Shown in pieces: positions 2,300 through 23,628 of a stretch of 64,000 nt of DNA (within the stretch, counting starts at the first letter, position 1; each line of letters opens with the position of its first letter). This stretch comes from Clostridia bacterium (GTDB lineage: Bacteria > Bacillota > Clostridia > Saccharofermentanales > Saccharofermentanaceae), in contig JAKSRG010000007.1 in NCBI GenBank assembly GCA_024403735.1, forward strand, positions 19,430 to 83,429, in the 5' to 3' direction. A program made the translations under genes and the position numbers. A model generated the notes under the pieces. That model worked only from the letters and a program-made list of their open reading frames with translations. It was not told the origin of the DNA and searched no databases.

Positions 2300-2590
2300 T
2301 CTGAAATATTCAGACTATTTGCATTTGTATATAAATAATCTGAATTTCTGATCTGAATAATTCAGATTATTTTTTGATATGAGATTTTAGTCTGAATTTA
2401 CTAATGAGTGGATGCTGGGGAATTCAGATTGTTTTTCACTATCATCATTTAGTCTGAATTTACAAAGGAATTGATAGTTGGAGAATTCAGATTATTTTTA
2501 GTTTTCTTTCATTAGTCTGAAGGTTTTAATATATGCGCATTCCAATGTTCAGACTATTTATAATTCTGCTCTAAAAATCTGAATATGTAT
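2300..2590. repeat. array of about 6 hairpin units built on a CTGAA/TTCAG core (about 61-63 bp period)
   Basis: Arm pairs are ttcagactattt 2309-2320 / aaataatctgaa 2333-2344, palindrome atctgaataattcagat 2351-2367, tagtctgaattta 2389-2401 / gaattcagatt 2420-2430, tagtctgaattta 2450-2462 / gaattcagatt 2482-2492, and agtctgaa 2514-2521 / ttcagact 2548-2555. Confidence 0.75.
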
Positions 2591-2626
2591 GAAATAGATT
2601 GCTCCTTTTAGGTGAATATTATGTAA

Positions 2627-3017
2627 TTGAACTTATAGAACAGAAACAGATTATAAGTTCAATTGAAAAGATGACTTTTTTGAAAATATGCACTTATAAT
2701 TCAAAACACAAATATAAGTTCAACAGATATCATTAGCTGAGATTTCAAATGAACTTATACAGTAAAAATAAGATATAAGTCCAATGGTAGTAGCAGATAG
2801 CACCTCGAGATTGAACCTATACGTCAGAACAAAAATATAGGTTCAATCCATCTCAATAGAGACGAGAAAATGTGTACTTATAAATTCAAACGTAAATATA
2901 AGTTCAATGGATTTCAAAGCAGATCTCAATCGGTGAACTTATATCAAATAATGAAAATATAAGTTCAAAAATTCCACCACATTGAACTTATAGAACAAAA
3001 ACAAAGTATAAGTTCAA
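2627..3017. repeat. array of 7 regularly spaced palindromic units (TGAACTTATA-N14-TATAAGTTCA, about 61 bp period)
   Basis: Left arms start at 2627, 2688, 2749, 2811, 2872, 2933 and 2982. Right arms start at 2652, 2713, 2774, 2836, 2897, 2958 and 3007. Loops are always 14 nt and A-rich. Spacers are 25-26 nt, with the last 13 nt. Confidence 0.9.
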
Positions 3018-3248
3018 CGCCTTACCAAGCCCAACATCACCAACACCACCAATACCTGCAACCCTCACAAGTTCTGCGCGCAATATCTCATTTTTTACCA
3101 AGAATATCTCATAAATGACCTTCTACACCTGAAATCAGCGGCGCTACTAATATTTCCAGCAAATAATCTCAACTCAAAGTTGACTTATTAACAAAATGTT
3201 AGTAAGATGACAAACGTAACATGAAATAACTGTTAGGGGAGAAACTAT

Positions 3249-5207
3249 ATGAGAAAGAGATTAGTATCTGCAATTCTTGCAGTAATTATGGTCTGCACAC
3301 TTTTTACTAGTGTAATGGCAGACGGCGCAGTTAATACTGCGGGCATCAATGACTTCGTAACAAGAATGTATAGCGTATGTCTGAATCGTAATCCTGATCA
3401 GTCTGGTCTTGATTACTGGAGTAACCAGCTTATCAATAAAAAGGCTACAGGATGTTCTGTTGCTGCTGGTTTTATTTTTAGTTCAGAATTCCAGAACAAG
3501 CAGTGCAGTAATGAAGAGTACGCTACTTATATGTACAAGGCGTTCTTTGGTAGAAATCCTGACCAGGGTGGTCTTAATTATTGGGTTGGTCAGCTTAATG
3601 GCGGTATGAGCCGTACAGATGTATTCATTGGTTTTGCTAACTCTAAGGAGTTCGCTGGTCTTTGTAGTAGTTACGGTATTGTTAAGGGTTATTACATCAA
3701 GGGCGTTGATCCTAATCAGGGCGCGATGGTAAGCCTTTTCGTTGAGCGTCTTTATAATGAGATCCTCGGTAGAAGCTGCGATGATGCAGGTATGGCATAT
3801 TGGACTGAGCAGCTTTGCTCACACAAGAAGTCTGGTTCAGAAGTTGCATTTGATTTTGTTTTCTCTAACGAGCTCAAAAACAAAAATCTCTGTAATGATC
3901 ACTATGTAGAGATGCTCTACAAGGCGTTCATGGGCAGATCTTCAGATGCTTCAGGCAAGTCACACTGGATTGATATGCTCAAGGCAGGAACTTCTAGAGA
4001 GGTTGTTTTCAATGGCTTCGCAGCGTCACAGGAGTTCAAGGGTATCTGTGATAGCTACGGAATTATCACTAGTGTAATCACAATAAAGGGCAGCGGAACA
4101 TACGCGCACGGTGCATGTGCTGTTTGCGGTACTGTTACTAACGGCACATCAACAGGAACTACAGGTACAAGCACTGGTACAGGTTCAACAACTGGCACTG
4201 GCTCAACATCAACAGGCACAACAACAACTCAGAAGTCTGGTTGGGTTATTGAGAACAACAAGTACTATTACTATGATCCTTCTACAGGCGAGATGGCTAA
4301 GGGTTGGAAGAAGATTGATAACACTTGGTACTACTTCGATGAGACGTTTGGTTATAAGAAGACTGGTTACCTCAACCAGAATGGCGTTGAATACTATTTC
4401 GATGATGACGGTAAGATGGTAACAGGTTGGGTTCAGAAGGGTGAATATTGGTATTATTACGCTTCTAACGGTGCTCTTCATAAGGGTCTCCTCGAGTACA
4501 ACAACAACCTCTATTACATGTCTGATTACACAGGTGTTATGCTCACTGGATTACGAATGGTAAACGGTGATTACTACTATTTCGAGGACAACGGTAAAGC
4601 ACATTCAGGCTGGCATCAGTCAGGCTCTAGCTGGAGTTACTACGATCCAACAACTAAGAAAGCAACTGTTGGTCTCAAGGAAATCTCTGGTGTCACATAT
4701 TATTTCAGCAGCACTGGCGTGATGCAGACTGGTCTCACAGAGATTAAGAATTACGATGATAATGGCAAGTACCTAAGTAGCGACTACTATTATTTCAAGG
4801 ATAGCGGCGCTATGGTTAAGGGCTTCTACGATGCAGGCAACAATAGCCTCTGGTTCTTCGACGAGACTACTGGTAAAGCACACAAGGCTGGCTGGGTAAA
4901 GGACAGCAAGGGTAATTACTACTACTGTACTGGTGCAACTGGTCAGCTCGCAGTTAGCAAGGTAGTTACTACTAAGAGCGGTTCTAGCTACGTTGGCAAA
5001 GATGGTAAGTGTAAGTACGGCTGGGTAACTGAGGATAAGTATTACACATACTACGCAGACTCAAATGGCTACCTCAAGAGCGGCCTCCAGACAATCGGCG
5101 GCAAGCAGTACTACTTCGATCCAGTTTCATTCTATATGTACAAGAACACATACGTATCAATCAACGGTTCTTACAAATACGTCGACAGTAACGGCGTCGT
5201 TCAGTGA
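3249..5207 (+). CDS. secreted cell-wall-associated protein: signal peptide, 4 DUF4214-type repeats, Thr/Gly linker, choline-type cell-wall-binding repeats
   Basis: The signal-like N-terminus is MRKRLVSAILAVIMVCTLFTSVMA. The motif NR.PD..G..YW...L appears four times. The linker is TSTGTTGTSTGTGSTTGTGSTSTGTTTT. It is followed by many GW...(N/D)..YYF...G.M..G repeats (CW_binding_1-like). Confidence 0.85.
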   Translation: MRKRLVSAILAVIMVCTLFTSVMADGAVNTAGINDFVTRMYSVCLNRNPDQSGLDYWSNQLINKKATGCSVAAGFIFSSEFQNKQCSNEEYATYMYKAFFGRNPDQGGLNYWVGQLNGGMSRTDVFIGFANSKEFAGLCSSYGIVKGYYIKGVDPNQGAMVSLFVERLYNEILGRSCDDAGMAYWTEQLCSHKKSGSEVAFDFVFSNELKNKNLCNDHYVEMLYKAFMGRSSDASGKSHWIDMLKAGTSREVVFNGFAASQEFKGICDSYGIITSVITIKGSGTYAHGACAVCGTVTNGTSTGTTGTSTGTGSTTGTGSTSTGTTTTQKSGWVIENNKYYYYDPSTGEMAKGWKKIDNTWYYFDETFGYKKTGYLNQNGVEYYFDDDGKMVTGWVQKGEYWYYYASNGALHKGLLEYNNNLYYMSDYTGVMLTGLRMVNGDYYYFEDNGKAHSGWHQSGSSWSYYDPTTKKATVGLKEISGVTYYFSSTGVMQTGLTEIKNYDDNGKYLSSDYYYFKDSGAMVKGFYDAGNNSLWFFDETTGKAHKAGWVKDSKGNYYYCTGATGQLAVSKVVTTKSGSSYVGKDGKCKYGWVTEDKYYTYYADSNGYLKSGLQTIGGKQYYFDPVSFYMYKNTYVSINGSYKYVDSNGVVQ

Positions 5208-5213
5208 TTAAGG

Positions 5214-5247
5214 GCGTGGCTGAAGGGTTCCTTCAGTCACGCTTTTT
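5214..5247 (+). terminator. intrinsic terminator
   Basis: A 13-bp stem, GCGTGGCTGAAGG / CCTTCAGTCACGC, has a 3-nt loop and is followed by T5. Confidence 0.85.
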
Positions 5248-5423
5248 GTTTTCGAGAAGTTCGTGGGCGCGCTTTTGACCATCTCGAAAACACGGTCTAA
5301 ACCTTACCGTCAAGAATAATCTGGAATAGTGCCGGCTTTTTCGCTTAAATCAGCGGTTTGAAATCAAATTCATTAATTTATAGTAGAGGAGTGTTAGTTT
5401 ATCAAATGAAATGAGGCATTCAT

Positions 5424-5842
5424 ATGTTAGAAGCAGTTGAATACGATCGCATAGTCGAGCGTGCTAAGCGAATTGACCCTAATGAGGAAGTTGTACATTA
5501 CGATTCAACACCACTCACAGCTGAGCAGGAGATGGCTCGTTTTGAGCGTGAGCAGAAGGCTAAGAGATCAGATGGCGAGAGCGCATCATCATTCGCTTCA
5601 CCTTTTGCACCAGCAGATAAGCAGTATGCACTTGATATGGCGTGCGTAATCTCAACTATGTTCCAGCTGAAAAGCTTGATTTCGTTCCAGTTGAGGAAGA
5701 GGAGGAACTTCCAGTAGGTGACACTGTTGATGGTAAGGCGCTTCTTGAGCGCAAGATGTCTAAGTTCCAGTATTGCCTAACTTGCGGTTTCTTACTTATG
5801 CCAGGTGAGACTGAGTGTTTTAGATGTAAGAAAGATCAGTAA
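5424..5842 (+). pseudogene. acidic protein with a C-terminal Zn-ribbon, split over two frames (frameshifted gene, sequencing indel, or two overlapping small ORFs)
   Basis: ORF 5424-5717 reads sensibly to about ...ADKQYALDMA, then becomes low-plausibility. Frame -1 (open from 5636, track ORF 5642-5842) continues with acidic sequence and ends in CLTC-N11-CFRC. Confidence 0.4.
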
Positions 5843-5862
5843 TAGTTACTATTATTTAATAG

Positions 5863-5893
5863 AGAGGCAAACTTCTGTTTGCCTCTTTGTTTT
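5863..5893 (+). terminator. intrinsic terminator
   Basis: AGAGGCAAAC / GTTTGCCTCT form a 10-bp stem with a 4-nt loop, followed by a T-rich tail. Confidence 0.8.
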
Positions 5894-6289
5894 GTCAAAA
5901 AAGAACATAAATGAGAAAAATCGTGTAATTAGGTAATATCTGTTGCATTGATTATTTACAGTATAGTAACAAGAGGAAGCAAACAGAAATCATAAAACTG
6001 GTTATAATAAAATAGGGCTGTATTAAAGGCAATAAATTTATCCATTTCCTAGAGATTTGGCTTAGGTGGATGTGGTAAGGCACATCTTCTATAAAGGGGA
6101 TTTTGAACATCCTTCTGGAAGATTACTAATGCTCGTATCTAGAACCCCTTTAATTAAGGAGATTGGTAGCTAGAACAGACCGTGGGAAATCTATTCCGAT
6201 AAGAATGGTTTGGGAAATATTTATATGGATAACATAATGAATGTATTAACAGGTTCGTTCAATAATATGATTGATAAGAGGGTATCGTA

Positions 6290-7489
6290 ATGCGTGTATG
6301 GGTGTGTAAAATATGTGATAGTAACAATCAAGTTGCTGATACATTACCAACTAGTTTGATTTGTGGGGTATGTGGCGCTGAATTTTCTGTTAACGAAGTA
6401 TTCGATATTGAGGCGACATCAAGTTCAAAAACAACTGAATATAGTTGTGAGAAATCAACAGAAAGAAAGAGATTATCGAAGACAGGCAAATTATTCTTGG
6501 CTGCAATAAGTTTGTTAATCCTTTTAGGAATCTCAGTTACTGTATATTTTGGTTATATTAAGCCTAATCATATTTTTGAAAGTAAAAAAACAAATAGTTC
6601 TGTTAAAGAAACCAAAGATAAGAAAGATCATGATGGTGGTAATGGTAGTAAGCTAGAGATTGGAGTTGTTCCTGATTTTACACGTAATCTTGATGACGTT
6701 GAGCCGACGGAAGAAACTACCGTGGAAACAGAAGAAACCACTGATGATTCTTGTGAACTTAATTTGGATAATTTCATTTACAGATTATTTGTTCTTATTC
6801 TTGAGAGGGAACCTAATCAATCGGAGAATGATTATTGGCAGAACAGGTTCATGATGGGCCTTTCTGGTTCTGATTGTGCTTATGAGTTTTTTATTAGTAA
6901 CGAATATGCTATCTTGCAAGATACAGATGAAGAATATGTTACAAAATTGTATTTAGTATTTTTGGATAGAGAACCAGATACTGATGGATTCAATTATTGG
7001 ATTAATCAGCTTAATAATGGAAGTAGTAGAGACGAAATATTCGATGGCTTTGCTAATTCTGTGGAATGGGCAGATCTCTGTTTGTTACGAGGTATTTTGG
7101 CAGGAGGAACTGCTGTGCCTTCCATTGAAGTTGAACCATCAGATGAGGTTGTTTCATTTGTTAAAAGCATTTATTTTAAGAGTTCATCAACTGAATTAAG
7201 TGCTGATGAATTATACGATTGCGCTAAAGAGTTAGTAAACAGACGAATTACTTGTGGTGAGGTAATACACTCATTTATTTTTTCTGATTATAATGTGACT
7301 TCTTATGGTACAGATAGAGATTTTGTTGTAGCACTTTATCAGATAATGTTTGATAGAATTCCAAGTGAAGAAGAGATTAATTATTGGACTAATCAATTGA
7401 ATGGTGATACAGATTATGAAACTTTATTTAAGCAATTTGCAGATTCAGATGAATTTAAAAAGATATGTTTCAAGTATTCAATAGGATGA
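6290..7489 (+). CDS. membrane protein: N-terminal Zn-ribbon, one TM helix, three extracytoplasmic DUF4214-type repeats
   Basis: The Zn-ribbon is CKIC-N15-CGVC at residues 6-28. The hydrophobic segment is LFLAAISLLILLGISVTVYFGYI. The motif (R/D)EP(N/D)..(E/G)..YW.N(Q/R) appears three times. Confidence 0.8.
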   Translation: MRVWVCKICDSNNQVADTLPTSLICGVCGAEFSVNEVFDIEATSSSKTTEYSCEKSTERKRLSKTGKLFLAAISLLILLGISVTVYFGYIKPNHIFESKKTNSSVKETKDKKDHDGGNGSKLEIGVVPDFTRNLDDVEPTEETTVETEETTDDSCELNLDNFIYRLFVLILEREPNQSENDYWQNRFMMGLSGSDCAYEFFISNEYAILQDTDEEYVTKLYLVFLDREPDTDGFNYWINQLNNGSSRDEIFDGFANSVEWADLCLLRGILAGGTAVPSIEVEPSDEVVSFVKSIYFKSSSTELSADELYDCAKELVNRRITCGEVIHSFIFSDYNVTSYGTDRDFVVALYQIMFDRIPSEEEINYWTNQLNGDTDYETLFKQFADSDEFKKICFKYSIG

Positions 7490-7525
7490 TCGATTAGATA
7501 TTGCATTTATTTGAGGAGCCTTGTT

Positions 7526-7576
7526 ATGAAAAATCTAGATATGACTGGTAGTTTCGTTGTTTTTGATTGTAGTTAA
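7526..7576 (+). CDS. possible 16-codon micro-ORF (MKNLDMTGSFVVFDCS)
   Basis: GAGGAG at 7513-7518 lies 7 nt upstream of ATG 7526, with TAA at 7574-7576. It sits in the 125-nt gap before the first vWA gene. There is no homology evidence. Confidence 0.25.
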   Translation: MKNLDMTGSFVVFDCS

Positions 7577-7614
7577 TTGATTTAAGAAAGGCCTTTGTAA
7601 GTATTGGAGGGTTA

Positions 7615-8277
7615 ATGGATATATATAGGACAGAATACTTTGTTGATATCGTGATGGTTATTGATTCAACTAATAGTATGGGACGGTTTATTAGAAGACT
7701 TGAGAATGATGCTTCGATTTTTTATCAAAAGTATCTTGAATGGATGGAACAGGGTGGCACTGCATTACCGCAGGTGAGAATAAAAGTAGTTGGTTTTTGT
7801 GATTACAAATGTGGTTGTGAACCGGTTATATGTGAGAGTACCTTCTTTAGTTTGCCGGTTGAAAATGCTGCATTCCATGAGGCTGTAAGTTGTATTGAAG
7901 TTAATGCTATTGGTGACGCTCCTAAGTGTGCTTATGAGGCTTTGGCGTTAGCGATGCAATCTGATTGGATGAAGTATGGTGCTAAGCGTAGACAAGTGAT
8001 ACTTCTATTTACTGATACACCAGTAAATTCTTTTGGAGATTCAAATGCGCTAGTGAATTCTATTCGCTTGAGAGGTATGTGGAACGGATTGAATGGTCTA
8101 GAAACGATTGAACAGCAAGCTAAGCGAATGATCGTTTTCGTTCCAAATGTTGCGTCATGGTCTTTTATACAGGATTGGGACCAAGTTTGGATATCTTACG
8201 TACGTCCTGGTGATGGTTGTAGTGAAGTTGATGTGAATCTGATAATTGAATTGATATCAAATGCTATTGGTATGTGA
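7615..8277 (+). CDS. cytosolic von Willebrand factor A (vWA)-like protein, paralog 1
   Basis: 220 aa with GGAGG at 7606-7610. The MIDAS-like motif is VMVIDSTNSM (DxSxS). Other blocks are VRIKVVGFCDY, YEALALAMQSDW and RRQVILLFTDTP. No signal peptide or TM. Confidence 0.8.
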   Translation: MDIYRTEYFVDIVMVIDSTNSMGRFIRRLENDASIFYQKYLEWMEQGGTALPQVRIKVVGFCDYKCGCEPVICESTFFSLPVENAAFHEAVSCIEVNAIGDAPKCAYEALALAMQSDWMKYGAKRRQVILLFTDTPVNSFGDSNALVNSIRLRGMWNGLNGLETIEQQAKRMIVFVPNVASWSFIQDWDQVWISYVRPGDGCSEVDVNLIIELISNAIGM

Positions 8278-8313
8278 TTAATACATCTTATAGGTTGCTT
8301 TGAAGGAGAGCAT

Positions 8314-9045
8314 ATGGGTATTTTCGAACGAGAACTTTTAGAGAGAAAGAGTTGTTATATTGATGTTGTTTTGGTTATCGATTCAACTGGTAGCATGGAT
8401 ACTGTTATTGATAGAGTAAAAAAAGGTGCTTTGAATTTTTACTTTAAGTGTGTAAATAGTTCATTTGTTACGGAAATGTCGAAGTGTGGCATGGATTTTT
8501 CGCAGGTAAGGATTAAAGTTATCTGTTTTCGTGATTACAAATATGATGGACCTTATGCTATGAAAGAAAGTAGATTTTATGTTTTGCCAGATGAGGTAGA
8601 AGCGTTTCAATCTTTCTTGAATGATATGGAAGGAAAAGGTGGAGGGGACAATCAAGAATGTGCATGTGAAGCGTTAGCTTTAGCAATACGTTCTGATTGG
8701 ACTAATGAAGGGGATAAACGAAGACATGTAATCCTATTACTAACTGATTCTCCAACTTGTGAGTTGGGAGATATTGGCAGGGTTAGTAGCGAATACTATC
8801 CGCCTAATATGCCTAGTAATATTTCTGAATTGCATAGTATGTGGAATGGTTTAGGTGGACAAGAATTGTCTGGAATGCCTGATCAGCGAGCTAAACGAAT
8901 GTTGGTTTTTGCTCCCCCTCATTCAGATTTGGAATTTGTGTATGCTGATTATTGGGATAAAGTTTATTTAGAAGAAACTAGTTTTTCAGATGATATTATT
9001 GACCCTGATATGTTACTACAGTTTATGTATTGTGCAATTGATTAG
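8314..9045 (+). CDS. cytosolic vWA-like protein, paralog 2
   Basis: 243 aa with blocks VLVIDSTGSM, VRIKVICFRDY, CEALALAIRSDW, RRHVILLLTDSP and MWNG. It is clearly paralogous to 7615-8277 and 9064-9780. Confidence 0.8.
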   Translation: MGIFERELLERKSCYIDVVLVIDSTGSMDTVIDRVKKGALNFYFKCVNSSFVTEMSKCGMDFSQVRIKVICFRDYKYDGPYAMKESRFYVLPDEVEAFQSFLNDMEGKGGGDNQECACEALALAIRSDWTNEGDKRRHVILLLTDSPTCELGDIGRVSSEYYPPNMPSNISELHSMWNGLGGQELSGMPDQRAKRMLVFAPPHSDLEFVYADYWDKVYLEETSFSDDIIDPDMLLQFMYCAID

Positions 9046-9063
9046 AGTTGGAGGTGTTGTAAT

Positions 9064-9780
9064 ATGAGTTTATGGTCAAATGAGATGGTTTCAGCATTTT
9101 CGTATGATTGTTGTGCGGATATTGTATTTGTTGTTGATGCCTCTGCTAAGATGAAGCCTATTATCGATGATGTTAAGGATAAAATTCCTGCTATTTGTGA
9201 GAATATATTGAATTATATGGATCAGATGGGCAAACCGGTGCCAGAGCCAAGGGTAAAGATTATAGCCTTTCGAAATTATAGATATGATGGTCAAGATGCT
9301 ATGTTTGAGAGTAAGTTTTTTGATTGGTCTAAGGAACGAACTGAGTTTCTAGAATGTTTGAACGGAATTGAAGCTAGACATGGTGGATATTATGATAGTA
9401 GTGCATATGAAGCATTGGCTTTAGCGATGCGTTCCGATTGGAATGAAGCAGGTCGTGTACGAAGACATGTGATTATTCTTATTACCGATTCCCCGGCAAG
9501 TCCTTTGGGCGATCCCCAAATAATGAGTAATCCTTATTATCCTCAAAATATGCCGAAAAACTTAGAACAATTGGAAAGAATGTGGAATGGAGAAGATCAG
9601 GAAGAATTGCCTGGAATGTCAGTGAATAGAGGTGGTCGATTATTTATTCTTGCGCCATATGTTCCTTCATGGTCTGCCTTGGAGGGTTGGGAGCAGATTT
9701 GGAATATTTATTCACACGCTGGAGCAGATCTTAATGAGTTCGATTTTGATACAATATCTGAACTCCTAGTAGATGTATGA
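9064..9780 (+). CDS. cytosolic vWA-like protein, paralog 3 (degenerate MIDAS)
   Basis: 238 aa with the same conserved blocks (VKIIAFRNYRYDG, YEALALAMRSDW, RRHVIILITDSP, MWNG). The first motif reads VFVVDASAKM, that is DxSxK instead of DxSxS. Confidence 0.8.
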   Translation: MSLWSNEMVSAFSYDCCADIVFVVDASAKMKPIIDDVKDKIPAICENILNYMDQMGKPVPEPRVKIIAFRNYRYDGQDAMFESKFFDWSKERTEFLECLNGIEARHGGYYDSSAYEALALAMRSDWNEAGRVRRHVIILITDSPASPLGDPQIMSNPYYPQNMPKNLEQLERMWNGEDQEELPGMSVNRGGRLFILAPYVPSWSALEGWEQIWNIYSHAGADLNEFDFDTISELLVDV

Positions 9781-9864
9781 GATGAAATGCTAGACTGTTT
9801 TGTTTGATGAATGTGATACAATTGGTGCTAGAAGTGCAATTGTATGTACTCAAGGAGATAGATT

Positions 9865-10146
9865 ATGAAAAAGAGAAACAGAGCAATCATTGCTACAACT
9901 TTATTTGCAGTTGCAATGAACGTTAATGGTTGTGGATTATATGGTCCGCCAGCTGAGGTTGAACCTACGGTTGAAGTTAATTTAACACCTGAAGATTATT
10001 CTAAGTATGTTGATACTGAGGCGGCTTCAGATAGTTCAGCTGAGGGTGATAAAGCTAGCGATAAAGCTAGCGATAAGGCTAGCGAAGACAGTGCTGATGC
10101 TGCTTCTGCAGACGATGTTGAAGTTCAGGATGGAGACGCTGAATAA
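9865..10146 (+). CDS. small acidic lipoprotein
   Basis: AAGGAG lies upstream. The signal plus lipobox is ...FAVAMNVNGC. The mature part is acidic, with a DKAS x3 tandem repeat. Confidence 0.7.
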   Translation: MKKRNRAIIATTLFAVAMNVNGCGLYGPPAEVEPTVEVNLTPEDYSKYVDTEAASDSSAEGDKASDKASDKASEDSADAASADDVEVQDGDAE

Positions 10147-10167
10147 TTTGTAATTTTGGAGTTTTGG

Positions 10168-10596
10168 ATGGATATTTTTGAATTGATTAAGAAGGCTTTT
10201 GGCGGCGGTGACGCTACTTCTGCTAGTGATGCAATCAAGGAATTGTTTGGTAATACTGAGTTTAAGGATATCCCAGAAGAAGCGATGCGCGAGATTAGAA
10301 GACACGCAGGTTCCGATAACATGGACAAGGTTTTCGATATTCTCCAGGAATTTACGGGCCGCAATATGGACGCTGCTAGGGAAGTGGGTAAGTCTGCTCA
10401 GACAACAACTTCTACATACAGCGAGCCGGAGCCAATTAGGGCAGCTGTTGATCCTAATAATGTTCCTGAATATGTTGTGATGGAGATGAAACGCCTCGTT
10501 GACGATGGCTGCAAGATTCAGGCGGTTAAGTACATTCAGGAAGCTACTGGCTGGAATATTGTGGATGCCAAGGCTTTTGTTGAGAGATACGGCTGA
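10168..10596 (+). CDS. small soluble protein with a C-terminal ribosomal L7/L12-CTD-like domain
   Basis: The track ORF starts at TTG 10156. I prefer ATG 10168, with TTGGAG at 10156-10161. The C-terminus EYVVMEMKRLVDDGCKIQAVKYIQEATGWNIVDAKAFVERYG resembles the L7/L12 C-terminal domain pattern (K..AIK.VRE.TGLGL.EAK..VE). Confidence 0.6.
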   Translation: MDIFELIKKAFGGGDATSASDAIKELFGNTEFKDIPEEAMREIRRHAGSDNMDKVFDILQEFTGRNMDAAREVGKSAQTTTSTYSEPEPIRAAVDPNNVPEYVVMEMKRLVDDGCKIQAVKYIQEATGWNIVDAKAFVERYG

Positions 10597-10673
10597 GTTT
10601 GGCGCGTGACTGATGCTGCTATCGGGGTAGCTAATGTGAGTTGTCGCGTACACAAATTTTGATTAGATTACGG

Positions 10674-10705
10674 AATGCTCTTCGCTTAGGCGGAGGGCAT
10701 TTTTG
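10674..10705 (+). terminator. probable terminator of the 6.3-10.6 kb gene string
   Basis: AATGCTCT / AGGGCATT form an 8-bp stem with one G-U pair and a 12-nt loop, followed by T4-5. Confidence 0.5.
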
Positions 10706-10814
10706 CTGTCTTTTAGTATTGTATGGTTGTTCAAATAGAAAAGAGCTCATACCCGTGTGGTAAGGTATAAGCTCTTTTAGGTTTCTATTACATTATGCTA
10801 TGTTCAGCTTGTGA

Positions 10815-11738
10815 TTACTGTGCACTGAATGTGATCTCATCGGTGTCACAGATTGTTCGATATGTGTCTGCGTCGAAGATATGGAATGTCAAGGATACTT
10901 CATCAATTGATGTGATGCCGTTTTCTTCTAATTCTGAACTGAAGATCGTAATGTCATCGATGGCCATTTTGTTGCTATAAACAGTGCAAGAGAAGATTGG
11001 TGTCATCATGAAATTGTTGATGGACATATTCTCTGCGCTTATAGTAACGTTCTTGTCAGATGTGTTCTCGATATAGAGGAGAATTGCTGTTCCCCAGAAG
11101 CTATTCTCATCAACAGTCTTACCAATTATCTTGATACCATCTGCATTATAAAGCTCGATACCATCATCGTTAGCAGGAATACTCATGTTGTTAACTTCGG
11201 AAGTAGTGATCTCAATACACTCAGTATCGTAGATTGTCTCGTAAGTATCGTTATCATAGATGTGGAAATATACTTCAATCTTGCCTACTTTATCGATGCC
11301 TGATGCTTCCAATTCGTTGGAAAGGAAGTAGAGGTTGTCATAGGCATTCTTGCCAGCTGCTACATCAGTTGCGAACAAATCGTTAATCATATAGTCGTTA
11401 ACGATGAGGGCGCTACAGCCCACCATGATGTTGCGATCCGACTTGTTTTCGATAAGAAGCTTGATACCATCGCCCCAAATAGTATCGTGAATATATTCTT
11501 CAGCAGTGATTGTAAGTTCGTCGATGTTGAGGATTTCCTGAGCCTCGATTGTCACTTCCTTCTTGCTGGAAGTTGTTTCTTCAACTACTTCTTCTGTGTC
11601 GTTCTTAGTTTCTTTGGCATCGTCTTTGACAATTGCTTTTGTCTCCTTTGTTCCGCTAGAACTGCTACTAGCGAGTGCCATGAATGCAAATGTTGCTAGG
11701 CACAAAATAAGTGCGATTGATTTAATGAATTTTTTCAT
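10815..11738 (-). CDS. lipoprotein of unknown function with two internal repeat domains (paralog of 56378-57439 and 57625-58623)
   Basis: The signal is MKKFIKSIALILCLATFAFMALA. The ...LIENKSDRNIMV...VNDYMIN...YFHIYDNDTYETIYDTECIEI pattern occurs twice and is shared with the two 56-58 kb genes. Confidence 0.75.
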   Translation of the reverse strand: MKKFIKSIALILCLATFAFMALASSSSSGTKETKAIVKDDAKETKNDTEEVVEETTSSKKEVTIEAQEILNIDELTITAEEYIHDTIWGDGIKLLIENKSDRNIMVGCSALIVNDYMINDLFATDVAAGKNAYDNLYFLSNELEASGIDKVGKIEVYFHIYDNDTYETIYDTECIEITTSEVNNMSIPANDDGIELYNADGIKIIGKTVDENSFWGTAILLYIENTSDKNVTISAENMSINNFMMTPIFSCTVYSNKMAIDDITIFSSELEENGITSIDEVSLTFHIFDADTYRTICDTDEITFSAQ

Positions 11739-12156
11739 AGGTACCCCTCCTAATAATAATTAGCCCTGCAATCGCCGCTGCGACTGCCTCGAAAACAACA
11801 TCTAGCACATCGCTCGTTCCCAAGATAACTCCAGTGAACTGCAATAATTCAAGAGTTGTTCCTAGTAAGGTAACTAGAACGGTTATGGATAGCACGCACT
11901 TTTTCTTGCCACCAATAATCAACTGAATTGCGAATACTAATGAATAACTCCAAAGCATATCGAGCAGGTGGTTTCTCATGAAAAGAAGTACTGGTGTATC
12001 GACAATATTGCTTCTGATGGTGTGTGAACCAAGATGCGATGATACCCACTTAACCAAAATAACATCTGGGGCGAATGCGCAATAGAATAGTCCGCCGAAG
12101 GCTAGCGGAATAGCTATATTCATCACCACAAATGCTATTTCTTTAATCTTGTTCAT
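11722..12156 (-). CDS. small polytopic membrane protein (tentatively VanZ-like)
   Basis: The track ORF runs to 12207. I prefer ATG 12156 (MNKIKEIAFVV...). It has four hydrophobic segments. ...ELLQF...GTSDVLDVVFEAVAAAIAG loosely resembles the VanZ C-terminal motif. It overlaps the downstream lipoprotein gene by 17 nt. Confidence 0.55.
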   Translation of the reverse strand: MNKIKEIAFVVMNIAIPLAFGGLFYCAFAPDVILVKWVSSHLGSHTIRSNIVDTPVLLFMRNHLLDMLWSYSLVFAIQLIIGGKKKCVLSITVLVTLLGTTLELLQFTGVILGTSDVLDVVFEAVAAAIAGLIIIRRGTYEKIH

Positions 12157-12236
12157 ATTTATTACCTTAGGGAAATGGTACCAAAAATGGGCATTAAAAA
12201 TTCCCACCGCCGTGGTGGGAATAAAAAGCTGATATT

Positions 12237-12713
12237 TTAGTTATCTTCGGTTGTATTGACGCTTTTGAGTGCATCAAGATTGTTGGAAATTAGTTCTTGG
12301 TTCAGTTGGTGAATTGTTGAAGATTTCTCGTTGAATTTCATGATCAAGAAGGCATCACGAGGATTTCTAGCATATAGCTGAGCCATTTCATATTTGTTCA
12401 AAGCGCGTTGTGTCTCGTCGAGATTCATGCCTGCTGCATAGCAAATTCTTAGGATTACGTCACGCTGTCTAGTTTTCTTCTCGCCTGACAAAAGCTTGTA
12501 GCCGTAGCCTTCAGAGATATCTGCTCGTAAGAAAAGTTCTTTTTGTGTTAGCTTTTTGTCCTTGAGTATCAATCTTATGTATGCGTAGAAATCGTTACTA
12601 GGAGCAAGCATTGATATGCGGTTGTCGTTCACCACATTTTTGTAATCTGATGAGTGAGCTTCACCTAGAACTTTTAACAATTCGTTAGTGTTCAATTCAG
12701 TCATAGAAATCAC
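12237..12713 (-). CDS. XRE-family helix-turn-helix protein
   Basis: 158 aa. KLTQKELFLRADISEGYGYKLLSGEKKTRQRDVILRICYAAGMNLDETQRAL is an HTH_3-like segment. It is divergent from the kinase gene. Confidence 0.7.
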   Translation of the reverse strand: MISMTELNTNELLKVLGEAHSSDYKNVVNDNRISMLAPSNDFYAYIRLILKDKKLTQKELFLRADISEGYGYKLLSGEKKTRQRDVILRICYAAGMNLDETQRALNKYEMAQLYARNPRDAFLIMKFNEKSSTIHQLNQELISNNLDALKSVNTTEDN

Positions 12714-12798
12714 TCCTTGGATTTTTTACTGATAATATCACTACTTTCTCAAAATGCAATTACAGGTTTGCTATAATCAATCTGAAGGAGTAAAGCAT

Positions 12799-13866
12799 AT
12801 GTACACGCTAGTATCAGTTCTGAATAAAGATCATCAGGTGTTTCTAGTCAGGCGAGATGACGGCAAGATTTGTGTGCAGAAAAATATCAAAATTTATAAC
12901 ATTGCGGTCTACGAATACCTCAAGAATAATCACATCGCTGGAACTCCAATAATATATGATTTCTACGAGCAGAATAATGAACTAATAATAATTGAAGAGT
13001 TCATTGAAGGTGATAGTTTGTCTAGCATAATAGATTCTCAGTGTTCACTGGACATTAACGAAGGCATTCAGTATGTTATCCAGCTCCTTGGAACATTGAA
13101 GAACCTCCATGAGATAAAGCCTTCAATCGTTCATCGTGATCTTAAGCCTTCCAACATAATCATTAACTCTGATAATGAGCCAATCTTGATTGATTTTAAT
13201 GTTGCCAAACTTCATGATGATACATCTATTCAATCACGTGACACTGCACTTTTTGGTACTGTGGGATATGCTGCGCCTGAGCAGTATGGATTTGGTGTAT
13301 CAACAATCAAAACTGACATTTACGCAGTTGGCGTAATCCTTCAAGATATCCTCAATAAATCTATTGATATCAGCAAATCACAGCAGAATGATCTGATTAA
13401 GATTATTGCGAAATGTACAGAACTCAATCCAGATGATAGATTTGAAACTGTCAAGGAGTTGGAGACAGCTCTTCGTAACAATATCAATCTATATTCACGA
13501 AATACAGGTTTCTGGTCATATGTTGGCGCCGTGCTTCGTAAATATGCTTTCCCAGGGTTTCGCACTGGTAAGATATGGAAAATGATTGTCGCATCTTTGG
13601 TATACGCGATGATTATTTTTATCTCTGCTAGAATTACAGTCGAGGGTGGTACAGAGGTAATTATTGCCCTGTATAGAATTATCTTTTTTGCTTTGTCACT
13701 AGCTCTGATATTCTGCACCTTTAATTATAGAAATATCCAACGCTGTGCGCCTTTTGCCAGAAGCAAGAACTTCCTTCTAAGAATTTTTGGCGTCGCACTT
13801 TTTAATATCTGTGTTTTAGGTATGTTCTTATTCTTGTTGGTTCTTGGTGTGAATATATTTGGATAG
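12799..13866 (+). CDS. membrane-anchored Hanks-type Ser/Thr protein kinase
   Basis: The track ORF starts at 12754. I prefer ATG 12799, with GAAGGAG at 12784-12790. The catalytic loop is HRDLKPSNII, followed by DFN and GTVGYAAPE. The C-terminal third has 3-4 TM helices and no PASTA domain. Confidence 0.85.
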   Translation: MYTLVSVLNKDHQVFLVRRDDGKICVQKNIKIYNIAVYEYLKNNHIAGTPIIYDFYEQNNELIIIEEFIEGDSLSSIIDSQCSLDINEGIQYVIQLLGTLKNLHEIKPSIVHRDLKPSNIIINSDNEPILIDFNVAKLHDDTSIQSRDTALFGTVGYAAPEQYGFGVSTIKTDIYAVGVILQDILNKSIDISKSQQNDLIKIIAKCTELNPDDRFETVKELETALRNNINLYSRNTGFWSYVGAVLRKYAFPGFRTGKIWKMIVASLVYAMIIFISARITVEGGTEVIIALYRIIFFALSLALIFCTFNYRNIQRCAPFARSKNFLLRIFGVALFNICVLGMFLFLLVLGVNIFG

Positions 13867-14038
13867 ACTTGGATGGCGGCAGGGTGTTTTCGAGATGGTC
13901 AAATATTCCTTATTGCTTTTTTGTCTAATAAAGGTGGGCTTTTGTCCGATATGTTTATCCAACTGTTCAAGTGTACAAATTCATGCAAAGTAATAAACTT
14001 ATTCTTGCAATATTATTATTTAGGAGCGGTGGCTTTGT

Positions 14039-15268
14039 ATGGAAACTTATGGCATTTTTCTTGAGCTCGCTATTATCGTAATCACTTCGAAGATTTTTGG
14101 CCTTCTTGCTAAGAAGCTCAAAGCACCTCAGGTTGTAGGTCAGATTGTTGCTGGTATCCTTATCGGACCTAGCGTACTCGGCATTGTAAGCCTCACAGAT
14201 TTCTTGAAGCAGATGGCTGAGATTGGCGTAATTCTTCTTATGTTCTCTGCTGGTCTCGAGACAAATCTCCGTGACCTCAAGAAGACTGGTCTCAAAGCAA
14301 CTCTCATCGCATGCTGTGGTGTATTTATCCCACTCATCTGCGGTTCGCTCCTTTACATGGCTTTCTATGGCCCAGCTTCATTCGGTTCAGAGAAGTTCCT
14401 TAAGGCTGTGTTCATCGGCGTTATTTTGACAGCAACTAGCGTTAGTATCACTGTTCAGGCGCTCAAGGAAATGGGTCGTCTCAAGGGTGAAATTGGTACA
14501 ACAATCGTTAGTGCCGCAATTATCGACGACGTTATCGGTATCATCGTTCTTACAGTTGTTGTTGGTTTCAAGAACCCAGAGTCAAAGCCACTCAAGGTTA
14601 TCCTCAGCACAATCATGTTCTTCGCATTCGCGCTTATCGTAGGTGTCGTTCTCTACAAGATAATGAAGGCCCTCGACGGTAAGTACCCACATACAAGAAG
14701 AATTCCAATCATGGGTCTTGCAATCTGCTTTTCATTCGCATACATCGCTGAAGCAGTATTCGGCGTAGCTGATATCACAGGTGCTTACCTCGCAGGTATC
14801 ATCCTCTGCTCACTTAAGGACTCAGAGTACATCGCACGTAAGACAGACATCAATTCTTACATGCTCTTCGGACCAATCTTCTTCGCAAGTATCGGTCTTA
14901 ACACTAACCTCGATAGCATCGACATGAACATTATTCTTTTCACAGTTGCTTTCGTAGTAGTTGGTCTCCTCTCAAAAATCATCGGTTGCGGTCTTATGTC
15001 CAAGGCCCTCAAGTACAAGACTAAGGACTGTATCAAGATCGGCGTCGGCATGATGACACGAGGCGAGGTTGCCCTCATCGTTTCCCAGAAGGGTCGTTCA
15101 GTTGGCCTCGTTGGTGAAGCATATTTCACAGCGGTAATCGTCCTCATCGTGGTATCAAGTATCCTCACTCCAATCATCTTGAAGCTCCTCTACAAGGGTG
15201 AGCCTGATGACACTGTTAAAGCAGTCGAGGCTACTGGAACAGGCGACGCAGGTAAGGCTGCAACATAA
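14039..15268 (+). CDS. cation:proton antiporter (CPA2/Kef-NapA type)
   Basis: 409 aa and polytopic. The N-terminus ...SKIFGLLAKKLKAPQVVGQIVAGILIGPSVLG is typical of Na_H_Exchanger family proteins. Confidence 0.85.
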   Translation: METYGIFLELAIIVITSKIFGLLAKKLKAPQVVGQIVAGILIGPSVLGIVSLTDFLKQMAEIGVILLMFSAGLETNLRDLKKTGLKATLIACCGVFIPLICGSLLYMAFYGPASFGSEKFLKAVFIGVILTATSVSITVQALKEMGRLKGEIGTTIVSAAIIDDVIGIIVLTVVVGFKNPESKPLKVILSTIMFFAFALIVGVVLYKIMKALDGKYPHTRRIPIMGLAICFSFAYIAEAVFGVADITGAYLAGIILCSLKDSEYIARKTDINSYMLFGPIFFASIGLNTNLDSIDMNIILFTVAFVVVGLLSKIIGCGLMSKALKYKTKDCIKIGVGMMTRGEVALIVSQKGRSVGLVGEAYFTAVIVLIVVSSILTPIILKLLYKGEPDDTVKAVEATGTGDAGKAAT

Positions 15269-16083: not shown

Positions 16084-17190
16084 ATGTCTAAGAAGATATT
16101 GGTAATAAATCCAGGTTCAACTTCAACTAAGGTTAGCCTTTTTGAAGATGAGAAGGTTGTTTTCGAGAAGAACTTGTTCCATGAGGCAGATATTTTGCTC
16201 TCTTTCGGACATGTAAATGATCAGCTCGGTTTTAGATATGATGTTATCGAGCAGATGCTTAAGGATGAGGGTGTTGATCCTGATTCTATTGACGCTTTTG
16301 TTGGTCGTGGTGGTTCAGCTTGTACACAGACTGGTGGTGTAACTAGCGTTGATCAGAAGCTCTTCGATGATACTGTTATCGCTGTTGGTGGTTCTGAGCA
16401 CCCAGCTAAGCTCGGCGTAATGCTCGCTTGGCAGTTCTCACAGAAGTTCAATAAGCCTGCTTACACACTTAACCCTACAAACGTTGATGAGTACTGCGAT
16501 TACGCTCGTCTCACAGGTATCAAGGGTATTTATCGTGTATCTCACTCACACGTGCTTAACCAGAAGGCTGTTGCTGAGTATCACGCAAAGAATGTTATGA
16601 ACAAGAAGTATGAGGATTGCAATTTTGTAGTTGCTCATATCGATGGTGGTATCACATGTAGTGCGCATGACCACGGTCGCATGATCGATGGTAACATGGG
16701 TGCTGACGGTGAGGGCGCTTATACTCCTACACGAATTGGTTCAGTTCCAGTTCTCCAGCTCCTCGACTATATTGAAGAGCACTCAGTTCAGGATGTAAGA
16801 CTTAGATGTACACGTGCTGGTGGTTTTGTTGATCTCCTCGGTACATCTAATTCAGATACAGTTCACGCTATGGTTGACGCTGGTGATCCTAAGGCTACAC
16901 TCGTATGGCGCACAATGATCTACAACGTAATCAAGATGATCGGCGAGATGTCAGTTGTTCTTAAGGGTAAGGTTGACGGCATCCTTTTGACTGGTGGCCT
17001 TTTGAGATTTAGCGATGTTGAGGAAATGATTTCTGAACACTGCGGTTGGATCGCGCCAATCACATGCTATCCAGGTGAGATGGAGCAGGAGGCTATGGCT
17101 ATCCCAGTTCTCTCAATCCTCAGAGGCGAGGCAGAAGCTAAGAAGTACTCAGGCAAGAATGTTTGGGACGGCTTCGAATTCATGGACTAA
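16084..17190 (+). CDS. buk: butyrate kinase
   Basis: 368 aa. The N-terminus KILVINPGSTSTKVSLFEDEK and the length are typical of Buk (ASKHA superfamily). Confidence 0.92.
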   Translation: MSKKILVINPGSTSTKVSLFEDEKVVFEKNLFHEADILLSFGHVNDQLGFRYDVIEQMLKDEGVDPDSIDAFVGRGGSACTQTGGVTSVDQKLFDDTVIAVGGSEHPAKLGVMLAWQFSQKFNKPAYTLNPTNVDEYCDYARLTGIKGIYRVSHSHVLNQKAVAEYHAKNVMNKKYEDCNFVVAHIDGGITCSAHDHGRMIDGNMGADGEGAYTPTRIGSVPVLQLLDYIEEHSVQDVRLRCTRAGGFVDLLGTSNSDTVHAMVDAGDPKATLVWRTMIYNVIKMIGEMSVVLKGKVDGILLTGGLLRFSDVEEMISEHCGWIAPITCYPGEMEQEAMAIPVLSILRGEAEAKKYSGKNVWDGFEFMD

Positions 17191-17261
17191 TTGTTTTCGA
17201 TGAGGTCAGATGTGACCCGCTCGAAAACACGCATTAAATATTTACTTTGGAGGTAATTATA

Positions 17262-18260
17262 ATGAGTGGTTTGATTGACAGAATTAAGGCTAAGGCAAGT
17301 AGTGACGTTAAGAAGATTGTTCTTCCAGAAGGTGATGAGGTACGTACAGTAGAGGCTGCTTCAATCCTCAAGAAGGAAGCAATCGCTGAGCCAATCCTTA
17401 TCGGTAACGTTGACAGCGTTAATAAAGTAGCTGCTGAACTCGGCGTAGATATCTCAGGCATTGAGATTATCGACCCAGAGACAAGCGCTCGCACAGCAGA
17501 TTATGCTAAGGAGCTTTACGAACTTCGTAAGGCTAAGGGCATGACAGAAGAGGTTGCTGCTAAGACAGTTCTCGATCCAATGTACTACGGTATCATGATG
17601 ATCAAGCTCGAAGAGGCAGACGGTCTCGTATCAGGTGCAGTTCACACAACAGGTGACATGCTCCGTCCAGCACTTCAGATTATTAAGACAAAGCCAGAGA
17701 TGAAGCTCGTTTCTTCTAGCTTCCTTATGGAAGTTCCTAACAAGGAGCTCGGTGAAGATGGTCTTCTCGTATACGCTGACTGCGTAGTTAACCCATGCCC
17801 AACAGCAGAGGAGCTCGCTTACATCGCAGTTGGTACAGCTGCTACAGCTAAGGCACTTTGCGGTTTTGAGGAGCCACGTGTAGCAATGCTCTCATTCTCA
17901 ACTAAGGGTTCAGCTAAGCACGACCTCGTATCAAAGGTTCAGCAGGCTGTTGATATGGCTCATGAGCTCGCTCCTGACCTTCTCCTCGATGGTGAGATGC
18001 AGTTCGACGCAGCTTTGGTGCCTAAGATTGGTGCTTCAAAGGCTAAGGGTAGCCCAGTTGCAGGCCGCGCTAACATCCTCGTATTCCCTGATCTCCAGGC
18101 TGGTAACATCGGCTACAAGATTACAGAGCGTATCGGTGGTGCTAATTGCTTCGCTGTACTCCAGGGTCTTAAGAAGCCATGTAATGACCTTTCACGTGGT
18201 TGCTCAGTTGACGATATCGTTAACACAGTAGCAATGACAGCAGTTCAGGCTCAGATGTAA
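17262..18260 (+). CDS. pta: phosphate acyltransferase (PTA_PTB family, Pta-like)
   Basis: ATG 17262 follows GGAGG. Supporting motifs are KKIVLPEGDEVRTVEAA, DGLVSGAVHTTGDMLRPALQIIKT and about 333 aa length. Acetyl versus butyryl specificity cannot be read from the sequence. Confidence 0.85.
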   Translation: MSGLIDRIKAKASSDVKKIVLPEGDEVRTVEAASILKKEAIAEPILIGNVDSVNKVAAELGVDISGIEIIDPETSARTADYAKELYELRKAKGMTEEVAAKTVLDPMYYGIMMIKLEEADGLVSGAVHTTGDMLRPALQIIKTKPEMKLVSSSFLMEVPNKELGEDGLLVYADCVVNPCPTAEELAYIAVGTAATAKALCGFEEPRVAMLSFSTKGSAKHDLVSKVQQAVDMAHELAPDLLLDGEMQFDAALVPKIGASKAKGSPVAGRANILVFPDLQAGNIGYKITERIGGANCFAVLQGLKKPCNDLSRGCSVDDIVNTVAMTAVQAQM

Positions 18261-18290
18261 TCAGTATTTGATTAATTATTGGATTTGATG

Positions 18291-18325
18291 ACACCTCCAA
18301 AGCTTCGCGCTTGGGGGTGTTTTGT
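18291..18325 (+). terminator. intrinsic terminator after pta
   Basis: ACACCTCCAA / TTGGGGGTGT form the stem, followed by a T-run. Confidence 0.8.
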
Positions 18326-18436
18326 TGTACTTAAATCCCCTTTCGCCCCAAATAAAAGTCTATTCACCCCTTAATCCACAAATGCAATTTTTGCTGTGCA
18401 ATAATCCCCACAGACTTGAATAGAGAGGATATGTAC

Positions 18437-20476: not shown

Positions 20477-20490
20477 GGAATGGTATTAAC

Positions 20491-22941: not shown

Positions 22942-22953
22942 GGAGACATATAT

Positions 22954-23628
22954 ATGACACACGTAATTGAAGTTAGTAACGTTAATAAGATTTTTGGTAA
23001 GAATGACACACGTCTTCAGGTTCTCGATAATGCCTGTGTAGAAATCTCAAAGGGCGAGTTCGTTTCTCTTATGGGTCCATCAGGTAGTGGTAAGTCAACA
23101 CTTCTTTACTTGATTGGAGGTCTCGATAGAGAGTTCGAAGGATCAATTAAGGTTGCAGGAGAGGAGATTACGAAACTCAAAGAATCCAAGTTGAGCGAAC
23201 TTCGCCTCAAGAAGATGGGCTTCGTGTTCCAGTTCTATAACCTTGTTCAGAACCTCACAGTTGAAGATAACATTCTTCTTCCGCTCACAGCTCAGGGCAA
23301 GTCCAAGGCATCCCTCGAGAATGATCTTAAGGAAATCCTTGAGATCACAGGTCTTACATCCAAGCGTAAGGTGATGCCAGCTAAGCTTTCAGGTGGTCAG
23401 CAGCAGCGTGTAGCAATTGCCCGCGCACTCCTTGGAAACCCAGAGATTATCTTAGCTGACGAGCCAACTGGTAACCTTGATTCTAAGGCTAGTAAGGAAA
23501 TTCTCGAGCTCTTTAAGCACATCAACGAGGAGAAGGGCGTAACAATTCTTCAAGTTACTCACTCAGATGAAGCTGCATCTTACAGTAACAGAATTGTCCG
23601 TCTTAATAACGGCAAAATTGTTGGATAA
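22954..23628 (+). CDS. ABC transporter ATP-binding protein
   Basis: Walker A is GPSGSGKST, the signature is LSGGQQQRVAIARAL, and Walker B is ILADEPTGNLD. Confidence 0.93.
   Translation: MTHVIEVSNVNKIFGKNDTRLQVLDNACVEISKGEFVSLMGPSGSGKSTLLYLIGGLDREFEGSIKVAGEEITKLKESKLSELRLKKMGFVFQFYNLVQNLTVEDNILLPLTAQGKSKASLENDLKEILEITGLTSKRKVMPAKLSGGQQQRVAIARALLGNPEIILADEPTGNLDSKASKEILELFKHINEEKGVTILQVTHSDEAASYSNRIVRLNNGKIVG

Follow-up and report, generated by a model that had tools for sequence, protein, structure and literature searches.

Does a block of six consecutive small genes in a Clostridia bacterium of the family Saccharofermentanaceae constitute an undescribed trans-envelope module, or is it a fragment of something already known? 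The block occupies positions 6290-10596 of a 64,000-nucleotide stretch of contig JAKSRG010000007.1 (assembly GCA_024403735.1), the whole of which was analysed and is called the window below. All six genes lie on the forward strand. They encode a 399-amino-acid (aa) membrane protein with a Zn ribbon, a transmembrane (TM) helix and DUF4214 repeats (6290-7489), three TerY-like von Willebrand factor A (vWA) paralogs of 220 aa (7615-8277), 243 aa (8314-9045) and 238 aa (9064-9780), a small acidic putative lipoprotein of 93 aa (9865-10146) and an L12-like protein (142 aa from a start at 10168, or 146 aa from one at 10156, to 10596). All six were called by an open reading frame (ORF) scan; the first four were typed with Pfam, the vWA genes also by alignment and the last of them by a structure model as well. 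The original prediction took the six genes for one new system. Our results indicate instead, with a probability of about 0.8, that window positions 5234-9852 are the truncated remnant of an accessory island of the TerY-P/TerD type, a known kind of stress or defence island under the control of a kinase and a phosphatase, and that the last two genes are unrelated neighbours of this island.

A word-indexed search with the 238-aa vWA protein found only four relatives, two of which are hosted by a 23-kb Logan contig (SRR17543909_12368; L001/L005) of a sister strain, hereafter strain A. By blastn, three collinear stretches link this contig to the window, contig positions 196-3909 corresponding to window positions 2309-6014 (95.5% identity), 17113-21829 to 6045-10708 (95.6%) and 21833-23045 to 13855-15067 (98.3%). 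With the same flanks, strain A carries an extra 13.2 kb at the point that corresponds to window positions ~6014 to ~6045; its island is 17.8 kb long. Typed with Pfam and PADLOC, the extra genes (reverse contig coordinates 3954-17343) encode, in order, a transglutaminase-core protein, a 242-aa vWA protein, a 708-aa PP2C-like protein, a 536-aa Ser/Thr kinase (STK), a 317-aa protein with an N-terminal ribbon as in the 399-aa protein, a SUKH immunity protein, a Tox-GHH HNH/EndoVII nuclease, a TrwB/VirD4-like ATPase, a 410-aa protein with no assigned family, an M48 peptidase, a TerD-domain protein (E 1e-39) with a Cys-rich N-terminal extension, and a 245-aa vWA protein. Immediately downstream come the 399-aa gene and the vWA trio.

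The direction of this change can be read from the window itself. At 6045-6275 on the forward strand, tblastn and nucleotide alignment revealed the pseudogene stump of a vWA gene orthologous to that of the 245-aa protein of strain A: 56 codons (6090-6257) are 68% identical to residues 188-243 of this protein (tblastn E 4e-23) and include an in-frame stop, and the nucleotide alignment shows several indels farther upstream. Because of this stump with its stop and indels, the alternative of an insertion in strain A was rejected, and the 13.2-kb difference is a deletion in the window lineage, with its junction at ~6014-6045. Identity between the two strains is 95-98% in the backbone and 99-100% in the vWA genes. 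Along the island it is mosaic, falling to 65-85% over 6015-6453 (the stump plus the 5' end of the 399-aa gene, which encodes the ribbon) and rising to 99-100% over 6754-9873. The latter value exceeds that of the backbone, which suggests that strains have recently exchanged segments of the island by recombination.

The association with a phosphatase and a kinase extends well beyond strain A. Pattern scans of species-representative genomes and metagenome contigs yielded 65 non-redundant loci with a close member of the vWA family (cited below by L numbers where needed), and their neighbourhoods were read by phmmer with strain A proteins against six-frame ORFs. An STK gene lies within 6 kb of the vWA gene at 41 of the 65 loci and beside it at 18 of the 23 loci that have at least 4 kb on both sides. 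A gene is usually present between the vWA gene and the kinase gene. As phmmer with the long PP2C-like protein proved insensitive (27/65 loci), a profile built from 14 of these intervening genes was used instead, and it matches solved bacterial and human PP2C/PPM phosphatases (E ~1e-8). The same vWA-PP2C-STK order is found on two annotated plasmids, from Herpetosiphon and Calothrix. Most loci have a single vWA copy; expansions arose independently at L006, with seven copies, and at L022/L023, with two or three, and TerD stands beside the vWA trio of L022.

How far do the three window proteins themselves fit this family? The original prediction described them as cytosolic vWA paralogs reminiscent of the TerY type, with shared motif blocks and no TM helix, and this description was borne out. 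They are mutually paralogous (phmmer 1e-34 to 1e-47), the motif blocks are present in the alignment, and no TM-grade hydrophobic stretch was found in any of the three. Their Pfam vWA matches are weak to moderate (VWA_2 for the 238-aa protein, 2.9e-8; VWA_4 for the 243-aa protein, 2.2e-7; 1e-3 for the 220-aa protein), and the assignment is also backed by comparison with PDB profiles. Moreover, an AlphaFold (AF2) model of the 238-aa protein (pLDDT 77, pTM 0.80) matches the vWA domains of integrin beta-I and Med25 in Foldseek (E ~2e-8), so that the vWA fold of this protein is confirmed at the level of a predicted structure. The metal-ion-dependent adhesion site (MIDAS) motif predicted for all three is intact, as DxTxS, in the 220-aa and 243-aa proteins, but reads DxSxK in the 238-aa protein. 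By the 42 positions that 85% or more of the vWA family have conserved, the 243-aa paralog is the best preserved (36/42), with its MIDAS intact and the DxTxS, GGGDxPE and TD motifs fully kept. These motifs are only partly kept in the other two: the 238-aa paralog (32/42) has HGGYYDS in place of the GGGDxPE loop, and in the 220-aa paralog (28/42) the loop has degenerated to AIGDAPK, the conserved loops thus being eroded in two of the three members. In a neighbour-joining tree the trio groups, on long branches, with the PP2C-adjacent 242-aa paralog of strain A (vWA242), and the 245-aa paralog of strain A belongs to an older clade; by this tree, the trio and vWA242 are lineage-specific duplicates.

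The 399-aa protein belongs to the same association. Pfam recognizes in it three DUF4214 repeats (E 7.6e-37) and, weakly, an NZF/TFIIB-type Zn ribbon at residues 3-39. The N-terminal ribbon follows the RanBP2/NZF-like pattern WxCxxC...N...CxxCG, and a single TM helix (residues 68-86) separates this cytoplasmic ribbon from the extracytoplasmic DUF4214 repeats. No relatives were returned by a word-indexed homolog search with the Zn-ribbon N-terminus. From the ribbon of the 399-aa protein, that of the 317-aa protein and that of one metagenomic neighbour we derived a hidden Markov model (HMM); at ~15 loci it found WxCxxC-x3-N-x(5-10)-CxxCG directly before or after the kinase gene or in the C-terminus of the kinase. 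Most of the proteins detected by this model begin with one to four ribbons at the N-terminus, followed by a linker, at least one TM helix and a variable outer part, made up of leucine-rich repeats, Ig-like repeats or multi-pass domains. The recurrence of such proteins across loci points to a membrane-tethered arm of the TerY-P system, and the 399-aa protein is the local version of the Zn-ribbon component. The proposed link between the Zn-ribbon membrane protein and the vWA genes is therefore real, since the same ribbon recurs in vWA-family loci, but it lies inside a known type of system rather than defining a new one. Genes of the ribbon-TM-ectodomain kind adjoin STK genes in L003, L007, L024, L026/L028/L029, L039, L045, L046, L055 and L059.

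Which known system does the complete island resemble most closely? The TerY-P triad, attributed to Anantharaman, Iyer and Aravind (2012) in PMC10542128 and PMC4978471, combines a TerY-like vWA protein with a PP2C and with an STK that bears a Zn ribbon at its C-terminus; its predicted role is that of a metal-sensing phosphorylation switch (PMC10542128). FtsK-like ATPases and nucleases accompany TerY-P islands, which in Helicobacter pylori have often undergone internal deletion (PMC4978471). An antiphage TerY-P variant, whose kinase carries a fused OB fold, is cited in PMC10542128 from Gao et al. (2020). The likenesses are several: most loci place PP2C and STK genes next to the family's vWA gene, the kinase is accompanied by the same RanBP2-like ribbon, TerD occurs on the island of strain A together with an FtsK/VirD4-like ATPase and an HNH-fold nuclease, and the window shows an internal island deletion, as in H. 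pylori. In contrast to the canonical triad, the vWA component has grown to five paralogs, three of them surviving in the window along with the stump, and the ribbon is carried by separate proteins, one of them the DUF4214 membrane protein, instead of being fused to the kinase. The window also differs in its lack of partners. It retains the TerY-like cytosolic MIDAS vWA component, but no PP2C gene was found in its 64 kb, although one is present in strain A and most family loci; no STK gene was found in the island remnant, and no TerD or effector gene in the window. The ribbon is present in the window, though at the N-terminus of a separate membrane protein and with no kinase. The two enzymes of the triad are missing here because PP2C and STK were deleted. 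That no TerY-type partner is adjacent, as the original prediction had stated, is thus literally true within the window, but the partners are present in the strain A locus, and a kinase gene at 12754-13866 had been missed.

The PADLOC search, for which a negative outcome had been foreseen should the module be new, gave almost no matches. Against PADLOC-DB 2.0, five of the six block proteins, the vWA and Zn-ribbon proteins included, had no match at E<=1, and the L12-like protein matched PDC-S49 only at chance level (E 0.052). In strain A, matches were confined to the kinase (mad6, 4.6e-23) and the ATPase (mad8, 2e-11). The locus shares with the TerY-P variant of Gao et al. (2020) the three-gene logic of vWA, PP2C and STK, but differs from it in having no PADLOC match for vWA or PP2C and no OB fold. 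A search of NCBIfam gave no named family for the vWA or Zn-ribbon proteins. The best PADLOC matches of the strain A kinase were mad6 (MADS) and PD-T4-6.

Other systems with vWA proteins are less similar. Plasmid R478-type ter clusters carry several TerY paralogs beside TerD-family genes. The present locus is like them in its several TerY-type vWA paralogs and in the TerD-domain gene of the strain A cluster, but TerZABCE, TerW and TerX were not seen, and the window itself is without TerD. vWA-MoxR/BatA and NTPase-linked vWA systems are alike in the cytosolic MIDAS-type vWA domain; neither an AAA+ MoxR, a DUF58 protein nor a STAND NTPase was found in the window or in the conserved neighbourhood of the family.

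Do the last two genes of the block belong to the island? Five strain contexts bear on this point: the window, strain A, and L021, L098 and L099, the first of these three reached through the sole close relative of the L12-like protein and the other two through members of its cluster. In L021, L098 and L099 the blastn breakpoints fall at window positions 5232/5233 and 9853, and the surface-protein gene to the left of the island is followed by ~85 bp of unrelated sequence and then by the lipoprotein and L12-like genes. By blastn, neither the small ORFs of the left edge nor the Zn-ribbon and vWA genes were found in these three. These breakpoints, together with low GC content at third codon positions (GC3), delimit the surviving part of the strain-variable accessory island at 5234-9852. 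Two of the five contexts have the island, one of them in complete form, whereas the lipoprotein and L12-like genes are present in all five, island or no island. As they are kept in the empty-site strains, these two genes are assigned to the backbone as unrelated neighbours of the island. An extended -10-like element (TGATACAAT, 9813-9821), just inside the right edge of the island and upstream of the lipoprotein gene, also precedes this gene in the empty-site strains, and the two genes are probably driven by their own promoter.

The view that all six genes together make up a new operon for trans-envelope sensing or assembly has to be measured against this distribution. The gene layout on which it was founded is accurate. 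The ORF scan confirmed six intact same-strand ORFs with gaps of 125, 36, 18, 84 and 21 nt, the last of which requires the ATG at 10168 as the start of the L12-like gene, the start that is also called in relatives. Strong forward-strand hairpins bound the block, as had been claimed, one of the intrinsic-terminator type followed by a T run at 5858-5891 (dG -21.1 kcal/mol, z -6.2) and an intrinsic terminator 3' of the L12-like gene at 10670-10703 (dG -24.3, z -5.2), and no terminator-type hairpin was found between 7489 and 10670. Composition speaks partly for the operon as well: positions 6290-9780 have a GC content of 33-38% and a GC3 of 0.22-0.29, against a GC3 of 0.42-0.55 in the flanks, and the lipoprotein gene, with 0.22, is island-like. 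The L12-like gene, however, has a backbone-like GC3 of 0.45. The impression of an AT-rich accessory block holds for the strain-variable island. Besides L021, L098 and L099, which keep these genes without the island, and the -10-like element shared by the window and the empty-site strains, two further observations contradict a common operon. The 90%-identity cluster of the L12-like protein contains seven distinct sequences, compared with two or three for island proteins, and no homolog of the lipoprotein or L12-like gene was found at the ~65 other vWA-family loci. A six-gene operon is consequently hardly credible. Of the module proposed in the original prediction, the joint occurrence of vWA, Zn-ribbon and L12-like genes does not extend to the ~65 other vWA-family loci examined, and its claim to be undescribed fails in substance on both sides: the PP2C, STK and TerD genes that identify a known operon type stand in the strain A locus and were lost here through the 13.2-kb deletion, and the six genes do not travel together.

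The lipoprotein has a signal peptide and Cys23 and no Pfam match. Among its orthologs in the window, L005, L021 and L099 its length differs (93, 97, 89 aa), and the gaps in the alignment of the window and strain A proteins lie in the acidic C-terminal half with SDKA repeats. The L12-like protein matches Ribosomal_L12 (PF00542) over ~30 C-terminal residues (profile positions 9-36 of 67) with an E value of 4.7e-4, below the cutoff, and in NCBIfam TIGR00855 (E 0.029), along with a below-cutoff PRK06771/L12 match. A word-indexed search with it found only its own ortholog and a PDB sequence search nothing significant, and a sensitive search gave 217 distant representative relatives that match residues ~90-140 only; the 85 residues at the N-terminus are without relatives beyond the protein's own lineage. 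All ten best-scoring relatives that were scanned have two to six partial Ribosomal_L12 repeats. The protein is thus like non-ribosomal L7/L12 C-terminal domain (CTD)-like repeat proteins over residues ~100-140 of its 142, but differs from them in its single copy. It was rejected as a ribosomal L7/L12, since its CTD is partial and the N-terminal dimerisation/L10-binding domain is missing. The label of an L7/L12-CTD-like protein is justified by the C-terminal repeat and its 217 relatives, but it covers only ~30 residues below the Pfam cutoff.

What would the complete island do, and what could be left of this in the window? The intact island is one operon-like array of a transglutaminase-like gene, five vWA genes, PP2C, STK, two ribbon protein genes (one soluble, one membrane), SUKH/Tox-GHH, the VirD4/HerA-like ATPase, M48 and TerD. 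Following the TerY-P literature, the kinase/phosphatase pair would be a phosphorylation switch that acts with MIDAS vWA proteins. We infer that the vWA paralogs may be diversified sensor or adaptor subunits, that the Zn-ribbon proteins may dock vWA proteins, one of them tethering the system to membrane and surface, and that the nuclease, ATPase and peptidase would provide the output. The deletion began just beyond the first promoter region of the island and ended midway through the fourth vWA gene, taking the kinase, the phosphatase, TerD and all candidate effectors, and leaving the stump, the ribbon-TM-DUF4214 gene and three vWA genes. This remnant may be transcribed and may form Zn-ribbon/vWA complexes, but it would have neither switch nor output. 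Most likely it is a signalling-dead leftover, a conclusion that we hold slightly less firmly than that of the truncation itself.

Several observations weigh against so bleak a reading. The four remaining island genes are intact, the upstream promoter region of the island is retained, and the pooled substitutions of the trio between the window and strain A comprise 8 nonsynonymous and 12 synonymous changes (binomial p 4e-4; dN/dS 0.12-0.31). Given intact genes, a synonymous bias and a retained promoter region, the remnant may still be useful. The dN/dS values were nevertheless rejected as a sign of selection after the deletion, being too weak for this with vWA genes that are 99-100% identical. 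In addition, a PP2C/STK pair encoded outside the 64-kb window could act in trans. The absence of any PADLOC match for vWA or PP2C proteins, in the window and in strain A alike, also counts against a plain TerY-P assignment, and it implies that this vWA clade is distant from whatever TerY-P models are in that library.

The intact reading frames, the bias towards synonymous changes and the island's upstream region kept at the junction also favour a different proposal, that the ribbon-TM-DUF4214 protein and the three vWA proteins are an autonomous working sub-module, in which DUF4214 would sense or bind at the surface and the ribbon would recruit a vWA scaffold, with no dedicated kinase and phosphatase or with ones encoded elsewhere. 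The recurrence of ribbon-TM-ectodomain proteins in vWA-family loci agrees with this proposal, and kinase-less arrays, which speak against a dead remnant too, are found in other genomes. One of them, L006 from an uncultured Lachnospiraceae metagenome-assembled genome, has seven vWA paralogs on one strand (3386-11527), the last six in tandem; a GDPD membrane protein gene lies between the first and the rest, QueD and QueE follow the last, and neither PP2C nor kinase was found in the 13-kb locus. An ORF at 1971-3404 of L006, considered as a partner candidate, was rejected as an antisense artefact of a GC-rich contig. The kinase-less vWA loci include five long ones and single genes in Cytophagales and Verrucomicrobiota. 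However, no Zn-ribbon gene was found beside the kinase-less arrays in L006 or L010-L013, and where flanks are long enough to tell, vWA is paired with STK far more often than not (the 18 of 23 loci above). Moreover, residues of the MIDAS loop that are invariant in the family have been lost in two of the three paralogs, the block is wholly absent from three sister strains, and the near-identity of the vWA genes between strains leaves almost no post-deletion evolution to read. An autonomous sub-module is thus unlikely, though it deserves more consideration than a six-gene operon, and a truncated island remnant remains the reading that we prefer.

Could the kinase gene downstream of the block have taken over from the one that was lost? 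This gene (12754-13866, forward strand) encodes a membrane Ser/Thr kinase of 370 aa whose TM helices lie at the C-terminus (Pkinase E 3e-27), so that a Pkinase domain lies 3 kb downstream of the trio and the window strain combines a truncated island with a kinase segment. The kinase could then have replaced the lost TerY-P kinase and now drive the vWA trio. Yet its gene, which is divergent from an HTH_26 regulator gene, belongs to a separate strain-variable segment of 3.1 kb (10708-13855), which also holds, on the reverse strand, that regulator, a 307-aa lipoprotein-like gene and a 161-aa membrane protein gene. This segment is present in L099, which is without the island, and absent from L021, L098 and strain A, which has the complete island; it therefore varies independently of the TerY-P island. 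Furthermore, phmmer gave no match at 1e-2 between this kinase and the island kinase, which have only the generic fold in common, and no PP2C or Zn ribbon was found beside it. Being unrelated to the island kinase and encoded in an independently variable segment, it was rejected as the missing partner, and such a replacement is very improbable.

The left edge of the island and its upstream flank complete the picture of the locus. Two overlapping small ORFs of 97 and 66 aa lie on the forward strand at 5424-5842, the 66-aa ORF ending in CxxC-x12-CxxC and being followed by a strong terminator. They are split into shorter ORFs in strain A and were not matched by the TerY-P ribbon HMM; possibly they represent a decaying gene. 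The backbone surface protein upstream (3249-5207; 652 aa) carries choline-binding repeats and DUF4214. These DUF4214 repeats are shared with the 399-aa protein (phmmer ~1e-40), the ectodomain of the island protein resembling the neighbouring host cell-wall protein, and the shared repeats could act as recombination substrates. The intergenic region upstream of the 652-aa gene (2300-3000) has 28% GC, internal repeats and a ~320-bp difference between strains.

The main value of these results is corrective: what looks like an orphan system is derived by deletion from an island of known type, with two of its six genes as bystanders, and strain-level comparison can resolve orphan-module calls of this kind. 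What is mildly new, leaving aside the original account of 2012, is the combination of diverged vWA proteins in multiple copies with a separate membrane-anchored ribbon protein of variable ectodomain. A broader conception would see here a Clostridia-type TerY-P system, whose separate ribbon-TM-variable-ectodomain protein and expanded vWA set (three, five or seven) form a diversifying membrane-tethered sensing arm able to persist and act without kinase and phosphatase. We regard this as an improbable extension of the data; if it is true, the four genes of the window would be a working minimal surface-sensing arm of TerY-P, which as far as we have checked, and again apart from the 2012 account, is undescribed. 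Two by-products may be useful for work on TerY-P and other conflict systems: tandem expansion of vWA has occurred repeatedly and independently, and membrane ribbon proteins with variable ectodomains recur in TerY-P loci, a hint that it is at its vWA and ribbon end that the switch may diversify and possibly sense ligands or surfaces. The series of full, truncated and empty sites in near-identical strains provides a ready genetic comparison.

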